Shown here: in pieces, positions 5,955 to 16,025 of the stretch
Numbering within the stretch: the stretch's first letter is position 1
Layout of the letters: every line of letters begins with the position of its first letter
From: a virus
Lineage: Duplodnaviria; Caudoviricetes
Strand: one strand, 5' to 3'
IMG/VR virus record: IMGVR_UViG_3300034375_006747
Span: 1-25,346 of that record
Length of the DNA stretch: 25,346 bases
Translations under genes and position numbers: made by a program
The notes under the pieces: generated by a model
Database searches by the model: none
The model's input: only the letters and a program-made list of their open reading frames with translations
Told to the model about the DNA's origin: nothing

Positions 5955-7133
5955 GTGGCGAATAAGAACACACCTAAAGAATGGGGCAATAACTTTTATA
6001 AAAAAGGTTGGCAACCAGGCTTAGAACTTAATGATGAAACTGGTCTTGGAGAAATAACTCATGTTGGAACTGACCCTAATTTTAGAAATAAATATGATGA
6101 AATATTATTAAATTGGGGCTTTGACCCTAAAGAATATGAAATAATAGGAACAGTTAGAGCTAGTAGTTGGAACGCTCAATTAAAAGGTGGAACTGTTGAA
6201 ACTTTTTATGCTTTTAAAGGCATAGTTCAAAGAAAAAATCCTAAAAGAGATAAATATACAAAAGAATTAATTAAACATATATCTAAAAAAACACCATTAA
6301 AACAAAAAACTTTAGGTGGAGATACTGCTTTTATGTTCTTTATGGCTGATTGGCAATTAGGAAAAAAAGATTTTGGAGTAGAAAATACTATAAATAGATA
6401 CGATATTGCCTTACAAGACGCAGTAAATAGAATAAAAGATTTAAGAAAAGTAGGAGTTCAAATAGATGAAATTTATATGGTCGGTTTAGGCGATTTAACT
6501 GAAAATTGCACTACTGCTTTCTTTGATAGCCAACCTCATAATGTTTCTTTATCCCTAATTGAACAATACGCACTAGCAAGAAGTATGATTATGAAAACAG
6601 TTGATACATTTTTACCTCATGCAGATAAATTAGTTTTAGCAGGAATTCCAGGAAATCACGGCGAAATGACAAGAAGTTCTAAAGGTAATGTATTTACAAA
6701 TAGATTAGATAATTCTGATATTATGCATTTTCAAATATGTGAAGAAATAATGAATGCAAATAAAGAACGATATAAAAAGGTAAGAGTAGAAGTACCAGAT
6801 AATTTTCATCAAGTATTAGAAGTTAAAGGTAAAACTTGTGCTTGGACTCATGGACATATGACAGGTAATAGTGGCTCTAATCCAGAAATAAAGATAGAAA
6901 ATTGGTGGAAAGGACAAATGTATGGCTTTTTACCTAGCGGACAAGCAGAAATATTAGTAACAGGACATTATCATCACTTTAGAGCTAAATATCAAGGCGA
7001 TAGAGCTTGGTTTCAAGCACCTAGTTTAGATAAGAGTATTGACTTTACACAACGAACAGGACTATGGAGCCACCCTGCAGTATTAACATTTACAATAAAT
7101 GAAAAAGGTTGGGCAAATTTAGAATTATTGTAA
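5955..7133 (+). CDS. calcineurin-like metallophosphoesterase (SbcD/Mre11 superfamily)
   Basis: ADWQLG, GLGDLTE, PGNHGE, THGH, TGHYHH metal-binding motifs. Confidence 0.8.
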   Translation: MANKNTPKEWGNNFYKKGWQPGLELNDETGLGEITHVGTDPNFRNKYDEILLNWGFDPKEYEIIGTVRASSWNAQLKGGTVETFYAFKGIVQRKNPKRDKYTKELIKHISKKTPLKQKTLGGDTAFMFFMADWQLGKKDFGVENTINRYDIALQDAVNRIKDLRKVGVQIDEIYMVGLGDLTENCTTAFFDSQPHNVSLSLIEQYALARSMIMKTVDTFLPHADKLVLAGIPGNHGEMTRSSKGNVFTNRLDNSDIMHFQICEEIMNANKERYKKVRVEVPDNFHQVLEVKGKTCAWTHGHMTGNSGSNPEIKIENWWKGQMYGFLPSGQAEILVTGHYHHFRAKYQGDRAWFQAPSLDKSIDFTQRTGLWSHPAVLTFTINEKGWANLELL

Positions 7134-7314: not shown

Positions 7315-7731
7315 ATGTTAGAGTTAATAATCGCTTGTGCTATACCTTACCCTTTTTTAACTCCTGATACTTTAAATGAATATATTGAATGCAGAGAAAT
7401 ACAATATAAAGTTAGTGCAGTAGAAGAACATATTGAATTAATAGTTGATGAATTTGGTTTAGATAAAGCTTTAATACCTTTACTAATTATTTATTGTGAA
7501 AGTTCTGGCAGAGAAAACGCTATAAATTACAATAAAAATGGTACAACTGATAGAGGATTATTTCAATTTAATGATAAAACTTGGGCTTGGTTAAAACCTA
7601 AATTAAAAATAACAACTACTCCATTTAATAAAATAGTAGCTACAAAAGTAGCTAAATGGTTAATGATTAATGACGGCTTACACCATTGGAACGCAAGTAG
7701 AAAGTGTTGGGACTATGATAATAAAAACTGA
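7315..7731 (+). CDS. lytic transglycosylase (SLT/lysozyme-like)
   Basis: CESSG (catalytic Glu), DRGLFQF, terminal W..S..CW. Confidence 0.8.
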   Translation: MLELIIACAIPYPFLTPDTLNEYIECREIQYKVSAVEEHIELIVDEFGLDKALIPLLIIYCESSGRENAINYNKNGTTDRGLFQFNDKTWAWLKPKLKITTTPFNKIVATKVAKWLMINDGLHHWNASRKCWDYDNKN

Positions 7732-8206
7732 AAAAGAAATGGAAAAATTATTAAAAGAAATAGAACATACAAAAGGTGGTAGTTTAAGTTCTAAAAGTCA
7801 TTTAAAAAATGCTTTGTATGATTGGCGAGTTGAAAAACAATGGGATAAAGAAAGTTCTAAAGTTTTTAGCTTAGAAGATAAAGGTTTTATGTTTATTTCT
7901 TATACAAAAAGAGAACCAAGACATTGTACTTTAAGACATTTTTTCGTATTAGAACAATATAGAGGTAAAAATATTGGTGCAGAAATGATGAAAATGTTAG
8001 AAGAAGATATGAAAGAAAATTATGTAATGTTATTAAGGTTTTTTGCAAATAAACCAAGTATTAAATTTTATGAAAAATTAGGCTACAGGTGGCATGGAAT
8101 ATCAAAAACTGGCTTACCTTTTACTTATTGGAATATAATCACTAAAAAATTAGCACCATTACCTAAAACTCAAGAAAGATATATTGTAAAACCTACACCA
8201 ATGTAA
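7715..8206 (+). CDS. GNAT-family acetyltransferase
   Basis: FVLEQYRGKNIG acetyl-CoA motif A and NKPSIKFYEKLGY; start re-called to ATG 7715. Confidence 0.8.
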   Translation: MIIKTEKEMEKLLKEIEHTKGGSLSSKSHLKNALYDWRVEKQWDKESSKVFSLEDKGFMFISYTKREPRHCTLRHFFVLEQYRGKNIGAEMMKMLEEDMKENYVMLLRFFANKPSIKFYEKLGYRWHGISKTGLPFTYWNIITKKLAPLPKTQERYIVKPTPM

Positions 8207-8250
8207 AAAAAGAAGACCTTAAAGACTGTTGCCAGTCCTTAAAGTCTTCT
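8205..8250 (-). terminator. intrinsic terminator for a minus-strand transcript
   Basis: 18-bp stem (8211-8228/8233-8250) with two G-U pairs, GCAA tetraloop and U-tract on the minus strand. Confidence 0.8.
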
Positions 8251-9158
8251 CGTATGTTAGATAATAATCACGGAGTTATCAGTGAATATATCATCTATTC
8301 TACCCTATTGGGAGTTATAAATCTAAATTAAGAGATTAAAGATACAGGCTAAATAATGACAATCTTGCTTACAGTTAAAGTTCAAAGTAATTTGTCAAAA
8401 CCACTTTGATTAAATTAACAACCCACCACACTCCACAACTAACCTAAAAGGATATTGTACTGCAAGTTATTCCTTCAGGCTTATATACCTTTCAGTATAT
8501 GGCTCGTGCATTACGCTACGACCACCTGAGATGAAGCTTCCCAAATGAGAAGTTACCTTCACAACCTATATCTTTAATCTCTCAAATTAACTAAGTCCTT
8601 ACGGATATGAGCGTATCTGTTTGCTTACTTAAATTACTTATCTAACATTTTTCGACATGCCGTATTTCAGGATTGGTTACTAAATGGTTTATAAGTTTTA
8701 AGTAGTTCATATTGCTTCGAATCAATATATGCTTTATAGCGTAGCCCTAAAGTATTTCAACTAAAGGCAGGTACATTCCTGAACTACTTGCCAAACAACT
8801 ACTCATATCCATAAGAACTCAGTTACAAAGAGCTTTTGTGAGAGCATACTCTAGATTTTTGGCTAGTTAAGTTTATACCAATCCTACTTTAAATTATTTT
8901 TTAATGGAAATTCTCAATCCTGTAGTCAATACGCCTACCTTACTTCTTACTTCTTGCTTTACTTCTTAACAAGTGGGCTAATTACCTCCCCAAGTTTCAT
9001 TTTCAGGTACTAGTTTATGCTCACAAAAGCTCTCTGTTTAAGTCTTCATCAAGGTTGAATTTCTAATTTCTTACCTACCAATTTTACTTGGGTTAGCTCT
9101 CGCTCTACTCGGTTGCTATTTTTTAAGGCTAACCATAACCTTATAAAAAATATAATAA
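8205..9158 (-). ncRNA. putative ~950-nt multi-domain structured non-coding RNA, family not recognised
   Basis: No long ORF; three adjacent domains closed by 20, 25 and 18 bp helices, all deviations G-U on the minus strand; upstream TATAAT and downstream terminator. Confidence 0.7.
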
Positions 9159-9164
9159 ACCTAT

Positions 9165-9192
9165 ATTATACTTTTTCTACTTTTTGTTCTAA
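9165..9192 (-). promoter_or_regulatory. candidate promoter of the ncRNA
   Basis: TATAAT at 9170-9165; weak -35 TTAGAA 16 nt upstream; A-tract further upstream. Confidence 0.45.
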
Positions 9193-9208
9193 GTTTTTTT
9201 TATTTTAG

Positions 9209-9236
9209 TTGTTATAGCGAGAACAGATTATATAAT
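9209..9236 (+). promoter_or_regulatory. promoter of the que operon
   Basis: TTGTTA-16 nt-TATAAT. Confidence 0.6.
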
Positions 9237-9267
9237 AGACAAATTTTTTATACCTGCTAACCTTATC

Positions 9268-9302
9268 TCAAGTACTAGAAAACCTTAAACAAAACTAGGA
9301 GG
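9268..9302 (+). promoter_or_regulatory. candidate preQ1 class I riboswitch-like element overlapping the queF RBS
   Basis: UCAAG-UACUAGAAAAC-CUUAA-ACAAAACUAG-GAGG; loop and A-rich tail resemble preQ1-I, but P1 is weak. Confidence 0.35.
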
Positions 9303-9307
9303 ACAAA

Positions 9308-9703
9308 ATGGCACATGAGCCAGAATATACTAAAGACCTAACTATATTAGGAAAAAAGACAAGAAATCCATTAGACCAACTTGAAACTTTTCCTGCACCA
9401 AAAAATACTCAAACAGTAAAATTTTGGACTGATGAATTGACAAGTTTATGTCCAATGACAGGACAACCTGACTTTGGAGAATTAACTATTGAATATCAGC
9501 CTGATGAATTATGTATTGAAAGTAAATCATTAAAGCTATATTTATGGACATTTAGAGAAGTAGGACATTTTTGCGAGGCATTAGCAAGTGATATTGCACA
9601 AAAATTATTTGATACTTTAGAGCCTAAATGGATAAAAGTAACTAATAAACAATCTAAAAGAGGTGGAATTGAAACTACTTCAGTAGGATATTTGGAGAAA
9701 TAA
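9308..9703 (+). CDS. queF: NADPH-dependent preQ0 reductase, unimodular QueF
   Basis: LCPMTGQPD and QueF motif ESKSLKLYL; RGGI near the C-terminus. Confidence 0.9.
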   Translation: MAHEPEYTKDLTILGKKTRNPLDQLETFPAPKNTQTVKFWTDELTSLCPMTGQPDFGELTIEYQPDELCIESKSLKLYLWTFREVGHFCEALASDIAQKLFDTLEPKWIKVTNKQSKRGGIETTSVGYLEK

Positions 9704-10485
9704 TGAAAAGAGCAGTATTAAGCCTTAGTGGAGGCATGGATAGTACAGGACTTTTAATTAATTTTTTAGCAAATGATTATAAAGTTTCTGCATTAAGTTT
9801 TGATTATGGACAAAAACATAAACTTGAATTAGAAAGATTATCTGATAATTTAGCTTATTTAAAAGAAAATGGCTATGAAGTAGAACATACAGTATTAGAT
9901 GTATCTCAAATAGGTAATTTATATAACTCTGCATTAGTTAGTAGCGATACTGATGTGCCAGAGGGCTTTTATGAGCAAGAAAATATGAAACTTACAGTAG
10001 TTCCAAATAGAAATATGATTTTCTTTTCTATGATTGCAGGTTATGCATTATCAATAGCAACAAAAGAAAATTGCCAAGTAGATATTGGACTTGGAGTTCA
10101 TAGTGGCGACCACGCAATTTATCCTGATTGCAGACCTGAATTTTATGTAGAGGCAATGAATGCTTTTAAAGTAGGCAATTGGGATAGTGATTTAGTAAGT
10201 TTAAAACTTCCTTACTTAAATGGAGATAAATTTACTATATTGCAAGATACTGACGCAAACTGCGTTAAGTTAAATTTAGACTTTAATACAGTTCTAAAAA
10301 ATACTAATACAAGTTATGCACCTGATGAAAAAGGAAGAGCTAGTGGAAAAACTGGCTCTGATGTTGAACGAATATTAGCTTTTTGGCAATTAGGAACACA
10401 AGACCCAGTTGAGTATGTAGGAGGTTGGGACGAAGTCTTAGAAAACGCTCTTAAATTACAACAAGAATTTCAAGAGAATAAGTAG
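9703..10485 (+). CDS. queC: 7-cyano-7-deazaguanine synthase
   Basis: SGGMDS PP-loop, FDYGQKH, VPNRN, YPDCRPEF. Confidence 0.93.
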   Translation: MKRAVLSLSGGMDSTGLLINFLANDYKVSALSFDYGQKHKLELERLSDNLAYLKENGYEVEHTVLDVSQIGNLYNSALVSSDTDVPEGFYEQENMKLTVVPNRNMIFFSMIAGYALSIATKENCQVDIGLGVHSGDHAIYPDCRPEFYVEAMNAFKVGNWDSDLVSLKLPYLNGDKFTILQDTDANCVKLNLDFNTVLKNTNTSYAPDEKGRASGKTGSDVERILAFWQLGTQDPVEYVGGWDEVLENALKLQQEFQENK

Positions 10486-10499
10486 GGCTACTACCCAAT

Positions 10500-10546
10500 G
10501 AATGCTTTTTCCTACCGAGAGAACAAAAGCTCACAGGTCTTTTTTG
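10500..10546 (-). repeat. dispersed intergenic repeat, copy R1 (inverted)
   Basis: Reverse complement of 10500-10529 matches 20034-20063 at 29/30 nt. Confidence 0.8.
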
Positions 10547-10573
10547 ACCATAAACATTGAAAGGTTGTAAGAA

Positions 10574-10951
10574 ATGTACTCAATAGCTAAAGAATTTACT
10601 TTTTCTGCAAGTCATCAATTACTTAATTTACCAAAAGAACACCAATGTGCTAGGTTGCATGGACATAATTATGTAGTAATTGTTGAGTTAATATCTATGA
10701 GATTAGATGAAGTTGGTTTCATAATTGACTATGGAGAATTAAATTTTATTAAAGAATATATAGATAATAAATTAGACCATAGGCATTTAAACGATGTTTT
10801 AAACTTTAATCCTACTGCTGAAAAAATGGCTAAACATTTTTATAAAGAATTTGAAGCAATGTTTATTGAAATATATGGAGAAAAAGATATTTTAAATAAA
10901 GTAAGTGTAAAAGAAACTGATAAAACTATTGCAAGTTATTATGAATACTAA
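10574..10951 (+). CDS. queD: 6-carboxytetrahydropterin synthase
   Basis: FSASH, CARLHGHNY, LDHRHLN, PTAE, VKET. Confidence 0.93.
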   Translation: MYSIAKEFTFSASHQLLNLPKEHQCARLHGHNYVVIVELISMRLDEVGFIIDYGELNFIKEYIDNKLDHRHLNDVLNFNPTAEKMAKHFYKEFEAMFIEIYGEKDILNKVSVKETDKTIASYYEY

Positions 10952-11675
10952 AACTTTACCTTTAATTAGAATAAATGAAATTTTTGGACCTACATTTCAA
11001 GGCGAGGGGCAAACTATTGGAAAGATTAGTGCATTTATTCGTGTTAGTGGTTGCAATTTAACTTGTGATTGGTGCGATACTCCATACACTTGGGACTGGA
11101 AAGGTAAAAATGGAGTTAAGTATGACCCTAAAAAAGAAACTATTGGCTTTACAGTTGAGCAAGTAGTAGGACAAATAATGAGCCTTAATTTACCTTTTGG
11201 AAGTCATATTGTTTTTACTGGTGGCGAACCAATGAGCCAACAAAGTAAATTATTTCATGTAATGAAAAATCTAAGACAAAAAGGATTTGTTATTGAAATT
11301 GAAACAAATGGAACAATATTAGCTAAAAATGATGAGTTTTTTGATGTTATAGATTACTTTAATATTAGTCCTAAATTATCAAATGCAGGTATGCCAAAAG
11401 AAAAAACTATTAAACCAAAAGTATTAGAACAATATATGCAATATTCGCAAAACTATGCTTTTAAATTTGTAGTACAAGAAATAGATGACTTATTTGAAGT
11501 AGATGAAATAGTAAAAGAAAACGATTTAAAAAATGTTTATATAATGCCTGAAGGCAAAAATAATAAAGACCATTTTATAAATATGGTGCAACTATCAGAT
11601 GAAATACTAAAAAGAGGATATAACTTATCTCCAAGATTGCATGTCTTGTTATGGTCAGATGAAAGAGGTAAATAA
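10941..11675 (+). CDS. queE: 7-carboxy-7-deazaguanine synthase (radical SAM)
   Basis: TFQGEG, CNLTCDWCDT, TGGEP, IETNG, SPK, RLH; start re-called to ATG 10941. Confidence 0.93.
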   Translation: MNTKTLPLIRINEIFGPTFQGEGQTIGKISAFIRVSGCNLTCDWCDTPYTWDWKGKNGVKYDPKKETIGFTVEQVVGQIMSLNLPFGSHIVFTGGEPMSQQSKLFHVMKNLRQKGFVIEIETNGTILAKNDEFFDVIDYFNISPKLSNAGMPKEKTIKPKVLEQYMQYSQNYAFKFVVQEIDDLFEVDEIVKENDLKNVYIMPEGKNNKDHFINMVQLSDEILKRGYNLSPRLHVLLWSDERGK

Positions 11676-12214
11676 TGCAACAAGAAAAAATAGAAAAATT
11701 AATAAAAGAATTATTAATTGAAATTGGAGAAGACCCAAATAGAGATGGATTATTAGAAACACCAAAAAGAGTTGCAAAGTTTTGGAAAGAGTTTATAGAT
11801 TATGACGCAGGAAAAATTGGAACAACTTTTGAAGCAGTAAAAGCAGACCAAATGGTTATAGTTAAAGGAATAAAAGTTTGGTCTTTATGTGAACATCATT
11901 TAATGCCGTTTAGTTCAGAAATAGCAATTGGTTATATAACTAGAGATAAAGTTTTAGGATTATCTAAATTTGCTAGAATAGCACATAAACACGCACATAA
12001 ATTACAACTACAAGAAAAACTAGTTTCTGATATTGCAAATGAAGTTAGAGATTTAGTAAATACATATGATGTAGCAGTTTATGGAATAGGAACCCATCTA
12101 TGTATGGTTGCAAGAGGAATTAAGACTGACGGACAAATGATTACTTCAGTTATGCGTGGAGTATTTAGAGAAGAAAGCGAAACTAGAAACGAATTTTTAT
12201 CATTAGTTAAATAA
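11675..12214 (+). CDS. folE: GTP cyclohydrolase I
   Basis: GLLETPKRVA, SLCEHHLMPF, GLSKFAR, LQLQE, HLCMVARG. Confidence 0.95.
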   Translation: MQQEKIEKLIKELLIEIGEDPNRDGLLETPKRVAKFWKEFIDYDAGKIGTTFEAVKADQMVIVKGIKVWSLCEHHLMPFSSEIAIGYITRDKVLGLSKFARIAHKHAHKLQLQEKLVSDIANEVRDLVNTYDVAVYGIGTHLCMVARGIKTDGQMITSVMRGVFREESETRNEFLSLVK

Positions 12215-14100: not shown

Positions 14101-14853
14101 ATGGATAAATTAGATATTGATAATAAATTTATCATTATTCCTGAATGGATTTTATTATCAAATATTTCAGATAAAGCAAAAGTTCTTTATGGTAATTTAT
14201 GGAAGTATGCAGATAGAGATACAAATAAATGCTTTCCAAGTAGAGCAACATTAGCAAAAAATATGAATTGTTATAAAAGTTCAATTGATAGAGTTTTAAA
14301 AGAGTTAATAGATATTAAAGCAGTTTCAGTACAAAATAGACCACCAAAAGATAATGGAGCTAATCAAAGTAATTTATATACATTAAGAACAATTAGCCCT
14401 GTATTCATAGATAAAGACACCCCTAGTAGTACTGATAAAGACACCCCTGTTGTCCTCGATAATGACCTAACAATAACCAATAGAACAAAAACCAATATAA
14501 CAAAGGTAAGAAAAAGAGATTTAATATTTGAAGAAATATGTAATCAATGTGGCATAGATTGGACTAAAGCAACAAGAGGAGAATTAGGCAGAGTTCAAAA
14601 AGCTACAAAAGAATTAAAAGAAATAAACGCAACTGTTGAAGAAATTAAAAAAGTATCTATTTGGTATAAAACAAATTGGAAAAATATTGATATTACACCT
14701 AATGGTATTGCTAATAACTTTAGTAATATTTTAGGTAAAATAGCTAAACAACCAAAAAAGAGAAAAAGTTGTGATGAAGTAGGTCATAATTGGATTGATT
14801 TAGAGCTGATATTTATTTGTCAATATTGTAGAATAGAAAAGAGTAAAAAATGA
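14101..14853 (+). CDS. phage replication initiator with N-terminal winged HTH
   Basis: CFPSRATLAKNM...SIDRVLKEL, SNLY; AGGAG RBS favours ATG 14101; internal direct repeats. Confidence 0.75.
   Translation: MDKLDIDNKFIIIPEWILLSNISDKAKVLYGNLWKYADRDTNKCFPSRATLAKNMNCYKSSIDRVLKELIDIKAVSVQNRPPKDNGANQSNLYTLRTISPVFIDKDTPSSTDKDTPVVLDNDLTITNRTKTNITKVRKRDLIFEEICNQCGIDWTKATRGELGRVQKATKELKEINATVEEIKKVSIWYKTNWKNIDITPNGIANNFSNILGKIAKQPKKRKSCDEVGHNWIDLELIFICQYCRIEKSKK
14410..14448 (+). repeat. iteron-like direct repeats, putative origin
   Basis: GATAAAGACACCCCT at 14410-14424 and 14434-14448 (24-nt period). Confidence 0.6.
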
Positions 14854-16025
14854 AAATTAAAATAAGTGAACTAAAATATTATCCTAAAAATGCTCGTCAA
14901 GGAGATGTAGGAGCTATTGCAAATAGCATAAAAGAACTAGGACAGTTTCGTTCTGTAGTAGTAAATAAAAATAATAATGAAATTTTAGCAGGTAATCATA
15001 CAGTTATGGCTATGGAGATGTTAGGTTATGACGAAGTTAATGTTGAATATGTAGATGTAGATGATAAAACTGCTAAAAAAATAGTTTTAGCTGATAATAG
15101 AATTTCTGACTTAGCAAGTTATAACGATAATGATTTAGCAGAATTATTAAAAGAAGTTGCACAAGATAGTGGGTTGAATGGAACTGGATTTGATGATGAT
15201 GATTTAGACGCATTATTAAAAGAAATTGCAGAGCCTTTAGATTTAGGAATAAATAAAAAACCAAAAGGAAAAAGAGTAGCTAGAAATTTACCGATAGATT
15301 TAATTTATTCTTATACACCTTTAGACCCAAGTTCATTTATTGCAAAAGAATTTGGTTGGTTATGTGGCTCAATTTCAACTGAAAGTATTCGATATGTAAA
15401 TAAGCCAGAAGTTGCAGAAAGATTTTTATGGCACCATGAAATACAATTTATTGATAATGATTGGAAAGACTATAATCACGAAAAACATTTAACTGCAGTA
15501 AAACATTTTAAACCTAAATATGCAACTACTAGAGATGTTATGAGTTCAGACCAATGTAGAGCAAATGATTGCGAATATTATACATTTGAACAAATTATGG
15601 AGTTTGCAGATGATATTGCACCTCATACAGAAAATATGATAATAATTCCAAAATATAATTGCATTGATAAAATACCTGAAGATTATGTTTTAGGATTTTC
15701 AGTACCAACTTCTTATGGTGGAACAGAAGTGCCTTGGGAGGCATTTAAAGGAAGAAAAGTTCATTTATTAGGTGGTAGTTGGAAACTACAATTGCAATAT
15801 TTAGAACTATTAGGAGATGATGTAATTAGTTTAGATAACAATTACATTAATAAAGTTTCTGATTGGGGACAATTTACTTTACCAGACGGAACATTAACTG
15901 ATTTAGAAAAAATTGGCTTTCCTAGAGGCTCAATTCTAAGTCATAAGACATTTGCAGTACTTTTAAGTCTTAATAATGTAGCTCAAAAAGTTAATGAAAT
16001 CTTAGGAAAAGACGAAGAAGAATAA
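14850..16025 (+). CDS. ParB/Srx-like N-terminal domain fused to a TGT/DpdA-like domain; candidate 7-deazaguanine DNA insertase
   Basis: N-term YPKNAR, ILAGNHT, LADNR; acidic linker; C-term FIDN, KVHLLGG and ISLD recall TGT-fold motifs; que operon nearby. Confidence 0.55.
   Translation: MKIKISELKYYPKNARQGDVGAIANSIKELGQFRSVVVNKNNNEILAGNHTVMAMEMLGYDEVNVEYVDVDDKTAKKIVLADNRISDLASYNDNDLAELLKEVAQDSGLNGTGFDDDDLDALLKEIAEPLDLGINKKPKGKRVARNLPIDLIYSYTPLDPSSFIAKEFGWLCGSISTESIRYVNKPEVAERFLWHHEIQFIDNDWKDYNHEKHLTAVKHFKPKYATTRDVMSSDQCRANDCEYYTFEQIMEFADDIAPHTENMIIIPKYNCIDKIPEDYVLGFSVPTSYGGTEVPWEAFKGRKVHLLGGSWKLQLQYLELLGDDVISLDNNYINKVSDWGQFTLPDGTLTDLEKIGFPRGSILSHKTFAVLLSLNNVAQKVNEILGKDEEE

Follow-up and report, generated by a model that had tools for sequence, protein, structure and literature searches.

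The window examined here is a viral record of 25,346 nt (IMG/VR IMGVR_UViG_3300034375_006747), and its largest stretch free of open reading frames (ORFs), positions 8207-9307, holds an array of three modules, A, B and C, each closed by a long helix between its two ends, together with a leader, a tail and an intrinsic terminator on the minus strand. An initial annotation, made from the sequence alone, had described this as the only large gap without long ORFs, and it is indeed the largest: it contains no ORF of at least 40 amino acids and no short ORF with a Shine-Dalgarno or other ribosome-binding site, and readings under translation table 4 or with TAG as glutamine gave nothing convincing. 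On these scans a protein-coding reading of the gap was rejected, and a tRNA or transfer-messenger RNA reading was likewise set aside, ARAGORN having found neither. The array and its immediate flanks comprise the following features.

7670..8206, plus strand: GNAT acetyltransferase gene, flanking the array and convergent with it.
8205..8251, minus strand: intrinsic terminator, a 19-pair stem followed by U7 (span in the terminator scan, 8251-8210).
8251..8323, minus strand: tail with a small hairpin, retained in a relative (L006) that is without the array.
8324..8589, minus strand: module A, 266 nt.
8324-8350/8563-8589: helix A, 27 bp, an extension of 8331-8350/8563-8582 (18 Watson-Crick pairs and 2 A-C on the plus strand).
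8588..8825, minus strand: module B, 238 nt.
8588-8612/8801-8825: helix B, 25 bp (21 Watson-Crick pairs and 4 A-C on the plus strand).
8708..8731, minus strand: conserved hairpin of module B with an 8-nt loop, A-UUCGAA-G (self-complementary core TTCGAA, 8716-8721).
8825..9037, minus strand: module C, 213 nt.
8825-8842/9020-9037: helix C, 18 bp (17 Watson-Crick pairs and 1 A-C on the plus strand), with 4 bp more beyond a 2-nt bulge.
9038..9151, minus strand: leader, with a 5' hairpin AAGGUUA/UUAGCCUU, then AAAAAAUAGCAAC, then ACUUAAACA leading into helix C.
9112..9134, minus strand: most conserved leader motif, in RNA sense GGUUAGCC..AAAAAAUAGCAAC.
9152..9179, minus strand: promoter-like site TAGAAA-16-TATTAT, predicted by a promoter scan (9/12 matches).
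9209-9236, plus strand: divergent promoter-like site TTGTTA-16-TATAAT in the flank, upstream of the QueF-like gene.
9308-9703, plus strand: QueF-like gene in the flank, first gene of a que cluster.

Structurally, the minus strand contains three uninterrupted helices of at least 18 bp, whereas 1000 dinucleotide shuffles averaged 0.001 (one of the 1000 had any), and a chance origin of these helices is excluded. Across the whole 25-kb window, helices A, B and C were also the only long-range inverted repeats at 88% complementarity or more. The coordinates first given for them proved exact on recheck, as did the observation that their seven non-Watson-Crick positions, and the two in the stem of the terminator (8211-8228/8233-8250, 16 Watson-Crick pairs), are all A-C on the plus strand and hence G-U on the minus strand; G-T on the plus strand is absent from all three helices and from the terminator stem. 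Counted in RNA sense over seven helices of the window and of a second, independent locus (L008, described below), the asymmetry amounts to 16 G.U versus 1 A.C (binomial p 2.7e-4). GC skew switches sign in the array region, and the unit as a whole folds better on the minus strand (-277 kcal/mol, z -9.2) than on the plus strand (-215 kcal/mol, z -5.8), its striking z being due to the closing helices and the terminator.

Evolutionarily, the array is not the one-off locus that the initial annotation implied, since it belongs to a family of modular arrays. Its members were reached with two patterns, one built on the conserved arm of A and one on the 5' core of B. The B-core pattern scan returned 12 loci (one identical contig, ten genuine relatives and one chance match), and an nhmmer profile search (354 loci) added L274, L278, L322, L326 and L333, which brings the contigs with B modules, besides the identical one, to at least 12 when counted by contig name. 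These viral contigs, at least 12 in number, share a layout of leader, module C, one to three copies of module B and module A, with zero-length linkers between modules. Tandem copies of B (two in L350, three in L354) differ in their loop allele (UUCGAA or UUAUAA) and in their variable sub-domains, and some relatives carry an extra first module or a different last module. In all 11 canonical relatives examined, the RNA sense of the array is the direction of the flanking genes, with an exonuclease gene (phrog_284) upstream; downstream come small genes and the gene for a replication initiator. The arrays of the window and L008 are instead inverted relative to their neighbours, each with its own terminator.

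Locus L008 (QueF 89%) carries its unit at another site, between exonuclease and lysozyme genes. This unit comprises four stem-closed modules that abut, a leader homologous to that of the window, a promoter-like site and a terminator. The short contig L141 has the outer arms of L008 module c1 around an unrelated interior and is missing module c2, and the c2 junctions (c2 being present in L008 and absent from L141) show by eye only CTTT microhomology. Inside module c2 (1976-2320), on the minus strand of L008 at 2008-2274, there is an 88-aa ORF with a Shine-Dalgarno site; it has no relatives in Pfam, PHROG or the atlas and occurs at no other viral locus, and without relatives it cannot be called a gene. 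The contig identical to the window (38,869 nt, rated 100% complete) contains a single copy of the array.

Other searches gave few or no relatives. The array DNA had no match by blastn against GenBank phages, and scans with the leader motif recovered only near-identical copies (2 of 8 viral loci and 5 of 105 metagenome loci were true). None of the 68 loci that the leader pattern returned from 185,579 species genomes was true, the single true match among 13 loci for the L008 arm pattern was L008's own contig, and scans by neighbouring gene (GNAT, QueF, lysozyme) gained few relatives. Candidate matches in L022, L025, L026, L031 and L351 were discarded as chance matches in coding sequence.

Within the modules, the arms and the interiors have evolved differently. 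The closing helix of module C, aligned over nine modules, is paired in 97.9% of 194 cells; its outer 12 pairs are conserved and include three columns fixed as G.U, and its inner 10 pairs covary, 6 of the 22 pairs having changed on both sides (1/500 shuffles). The covariation score of this helix was reached by none of 500 shuffles, and slid controls gave at most 1. C interiors fall into at least three types, of which that of the window recurs, diverged, in L347, L352, L354, L350 and L353. By eye, module C of the window also holds a 13-codon frame (AUG...UAA, ~8952-8993, minus strand) without a ribosome-binding site; the frame persists with one replacement in L354, has been lost from L353 and probably does not encode a peptide.

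The closing helix of module B, aligned over 14 modules, is paired in 99.6% of cells and nearly invariant, with U.G in 14/14 at two columns. Its interior consists of three conserved core blocks and two variable sub-domains, V1 and V2, each of which exists in several versions that are combined in a mosaic fashion among the 14 modules. Between the B modules of the window and L244, 63 of 64 predicted pairs are retained, 8 of them changed on both sides. In the conserved B hairpin, the loop core is UUCGAA in seven modules and UUAUAA in six, with an expanded loop in one; a half-changed form never occurs. A self-complementary 6-nt loop flanked by purines is thus present in 13/14 B modules, its alleles differing at both central bases, and we regard this palindromic loop as a candidate kissing-dimer site.

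The outer arms of module A are common to nearly all last modules. Compared with module c4 of L008, helix A retains 21/21 core pairs, with four compensatory changes, four wobble changes and no broken pair, around interiors that are unrelated. The interior type of the window's module A is also found in L354 and L344, where a covarying hairpin and an invariant GGUCGUAGCGUAAUGCACGAGCC hairpin are shared and the 3' half differs; in the three-sequence fold of this A1 type, 16 of 83 predicted pairs have changed on both sides. Like arms around unrelated interiors thus occur both in L141 versus L008 c1 and among A-type arms (z ~0). Modules C, B and A of the window could not be regarded as paralogues of one another (similarity z <2, no shared motifs).

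No match at the gathering score was obtained with cmscan against Rfam 15, either in the window or in 11 related loci (48.9 kb). At E <=10, positions 8100-9350 gave nine chance-level matches, among which neither ROOL nor GOLLD appeared, and by covariance model the array does not belong to ROOL (RF03087) or GOLLD (RF01998). Because wobbles are strand-specific and fixed in position, because pairs change in a compensatory manner (in the C helix, the A helix, the B modules of the window and L244, and the A1-type fold), and because array and gene direction agree, the data point to selection for RNA pairing in the minus sense, as first proposed. Together with the Rfam null, these results support the core of the initial annotation, namely an unrecognised, structured, minus-strand non-coding RNA of three stem-closed domains, bracketed by a promoter-like site and a terminator and divergent from the que operon.

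The ends of the unit are defined to different degrees. A minus-strand terminator was found as first described, and the tail and terminator together are 86% identical to those of L006 across 126 nt. The tail itself (8251-8323) folds with a z of -2.70 on the minus strand versus -0.60 on the plus strand, and, together with the terminator (8205-8251), it may represent an independent small RNA. Of the promoter first proposed, the minus-strand TATAAT (9170-9165) is present in the sequence; the promoter scan picks TAGAAA-16-TATTAT (9179-9152) instead, and L008 has a promoter-like site, TTGGTA-17-TATTAT, at the equivalent place upstream of its leader. The leaders of the window and L008 are homologous (z 14.8), and the leader hairpin stem is seen by eye in three leader types, as AAGGUUA/UUAGCCUU, GGUUA/UUAGCC and AGAGA/UCUCU. 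The pairings assigned earlier to a smaller 5' domain (AAGGTT 9051/AACCTT 9137 and GGTTAGC 9091/GCTAACC 9128) are complementary in the window and are not kept in the diverged leader of L008. In L345-L354, inspection by eye shows similar promoter-like elements (AAGATTG.AT, ~12-14 nt, AGAGATTAA) on either side of the array, one ahead of the leader and one after the last module, and a GAGATTAA motif recurs in the leader hairpin and the A-type 5' arm; these repeated elements, AGAGATTAA and GAGATTAA, could be regulatory or a recombination site.

Beyond the array, positions 9308-12214 of the window encode a QueF-like protein, QueC, QueD (PTPS), a radical-SAM QueE-like protein and GTP cyclohydrolase I, a gene set expected to serve 7-deazaguanine synthesis for DNA modification, and a ParB-like/DUF6610 protein is encoded at 14850-16025. 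Elsewhere, an unrelated 81-kb phage contig (L003) has an ORF-free domain of ~350 nt with a 24-bp closing helix (6714-7066, plus strand of the locus; fold z -5.4 on the plus strand versus -3.0 on the minus strand, no Rfam matches), as well as a 27-bp hairpin at 6149-6247.

On balance, we lean towards reading positions 8205-9179 as a member of an uncatalogued family of phage arrays that is likely transcribed from the minus strand and, judging from its sequence and those of its relatives, is predicted to be cut by RNase III into three stable RNAs. Mechanistically, a sigma-70-like promoter would drive a minus-strand primary transcript of ~0.95 kb that ends at the terminator; RNase III would then cut the closing helices, releasing three RNAs of ~210-270 nt with base-paired ends, and these could serve as decoys, sponges or regulators that act in trans while infection is still early, with module B perhaps associating with itself through its palindromic loop. 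Separate products are favoured because the copy number of B varies and modules are swapped, and cutting by RNase III is favoured because helices of 18-27 bp that join both ends of a module resemble the stems that are cut in ribosomal RNA (rRNA) precursors and intervening sequences (IVSs).

Several observations weigh against this reading. Promoter-like sites in the region are not above chance (10 found versus 10.7 expected). The interiors fold no better than dinucleotide shuffles of the minus strand (z +1.28 for C, -0.94 for B and -1.43 for A), and energy alone thus fails to show the "ornate" RNA that the initial annotation had envisaged. Covariation in the B helix is low owing to its near-invariance (two pairs, 3/500 shuffles), strong conservation of both B arms would also be expected of a protein-bound DNA site, and a strand-biased mutation spectrum might contribute to the excess of G.U. 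The covariation counts rest on a small number of sequences (2-14), and several structures were predicted on the same alignments that later served for pair counts. Finally, a close relative (L006, 98% QueF identity) retains terminator, tail and que promoter and is missing 8331-9196, with 48 nt in their place, and a complete 34-kb relative genome has no match to the array; the array is therefore accessory and dispensable.

An alternative that we hold to be unlikely, if deserving of attention, is that the array works as one large uncut RNA in which the leader, C, B and A lie side by side and the palindromic loop of B likely leads to dimers or RNA-only assemblies, as in ROOL, GOLLD and OLE. The zero-length linkers and the conserved order C-B-A, in the window and its relatives, would suit such an uncut, assembled RNA too, and to that extent they tell against separate products; the self-complementary, purine-flanked loop, with two alleles that differ at both central bases, fits as well, as does the phage setting, and homo-oligomers are described for GOLLD, ROOL and OLE in the accessible part of PMC12286853. 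A single assembled RNA agrees poorly with one to three copies of B, with the swapping or replacement of whole modules and sub-domains and with the four modules and other interiors of L008, and the array lacks both an excess of interior folding energy over shuffles and any Rfam match to ROOL or GOLLD.

We give little credence to a cis-acting role, in which the array would be a processing or stability region of an early operon, its stems cut to stabilise neighbouring mRNAs in the manner of the T7 early RNase III sites and its interiors mere passengers. The co-directional placement of the array between the exonuclease gene and small early genes in all 11 canonical loci would agree with such a role, as would the 88-aa ORF with a Shine-Dalgarno site inside one L008 module, and a terminator was not noticed in the interval from the last module to the following gene. 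The arrays of the window and L008 are nevertheless separate units that run opposite to their neighbours and end in their own terminators, the interiors carry conserved blocks and covarying hairpins unexpected of passenger sequence, and 700-1300 nt far exceeds what a cleavage site needs.

Very improbable, in our estimate, are DNA-level elements (MITE-like insertions, invertible segments or sites of recombination, with inverted repeats to which a transposase or recombinase binds) to which RNA pairing would be irrelevant: strongly conserved arms around variable interiors, the gain or loss of modules as units (c2 in L008 and not in L141), close relatives without the array and the precedent of Correia elements, which combine inverted repeats with RNase III binding according to the available portion of PMC2649163, would suit them, yet the mismatches are G.U on one strand (16 versus 1) at columns fixed over 9-14 copies, inner helix pairs covary, in the complete 38.9-kb genome the array occurs once, without the dispersed copies expected of MITEs, arm and leader patterns found no dispersed copies (the window itself has no further arm copies, and the leader pattern had no true copy in 185,579 species genomes), no transposase, invertase or recombinase domain occurs in the 30 window ORFs scanned, and 14/14 B modules keep one orientation relative to their arms, contrary to what an inverton would show. 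A replication origin was also rejected, as there are no iterons and several genes lie between the array and the initiator gene in most loci, and neither CsrA (GGA) nor Hfq (ARN) motifs are enriched in the array.

More speculatively, and with a low probability in our estimate, the arrays might constitute a phage RNA class of their own, in which a leader drives a rack of interchangeable modules: the conserved closing helices would be universal frames for processing or docking, the interior sub-domains would be shuffled between phages in an arms race and the palindromic kissing loop of B would link copies into assemblies for early host takeover or counter-defence. Large structured phage non-coding RNAs are few and their functions mostly unknown, and the array adds to them a family absent from Rfam 15 with an unusual design, namely separable, helix-clamped modules whose copy number varies and whose interiors pass from phage to phage in part. 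Should the modules be released to act in trans, phages would have their own equivalent of clustered small-RNA precursors; should they assemble by way of the palindromic loop, the array would join the natural complexes made of RNA only. With coordinates for 14 B, 9 C and several A modules, the family is sufficiently defined for bench tests, and a covariance model could be built from these modules for RNA libraries.

Each component of the array has precedents, among them RNase III stems, intervening sequences, large non-coding RNAs of phages and kissing loops; a prior leader-driven array of exchangeable stem-closed modules was found neither in Rfam nor in the abstracts through which the literature was covered. 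RNase III substrates include long duplexes, which helices of 18-27 bp fit, and the duplex of about two turns, formed by flanking sequences, that marks an RNase III precursor is present in each module (27, 25 and 18(+4) bp). Intervening sequences are sporadic, variable in their interior, occasionally hold an ORF and are excised at their stem, and the array resembles them in its 18-27-bp closing helices, its variable interiors and its one module with an ORF. As in the rRNA-operon stems and IVSs cut by RNase III, to the extent that the available portions of PMC6582327 and PMC4990558 describe them, a long duplex is formed by the sequences to either side of an RNA 100 to several hundred nt long. 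Unlike these, the array lies in a phage, in tandem, behind a dedicated leader, between protein genes and without any rRNA match; a 23S rRNA intervening sequence was dismissed, as the window contains no rRNA and the array lies between protein genes.

In the T7 early transcript, the RNase III sites are local hairpins between the protein genes of a polycistronic RNA. The array shares with T7 the early region of a phage and double-stranded elements between polycistronic units, and differs in having long-range helices around non-coding interiors of 130-550 nt that contain conserved hairpins. Correia elements and other MITEs are likewise units of 100-300 bp with inverted repeats of ~20-26 bp, and inverted repeats with RNase III binding of the RNA form are described for Correia elements in the accessible text of PMC2649163. 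In contrast to MITEs, which are dispersed and multi-copy, there is one array per genome, its arms differ by module type and its mismatches are wobbles only, on one strand.

The dimerisation initiation site (DIS) of HIV-1 dimerises through a kissing loop with a self-complementary 6-nt core flanked by purines. The loop hexamer of module B is similarly self-complementary and purine-flanked, and both of its central bases change together, self-complementarity being kept through this variation in 13/14 B modules. It differs in belonging to a non-coding RNA of a DNA phage, its dimer is only predicted, and at the DNA level the near-palindrome could instead bind a dimeric protein; palindromic kissing dimers are reviewed, in the part available to us, in PMC7357161. 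With ROOL and GOLLD, finally, the array has in common that it is a large non-coding RNA locus of a phage and, on what is known here from sequence, that it might self-associate through its palindromic loop, and it is set apart from them by separable, exchangeable modules in variable copy number.

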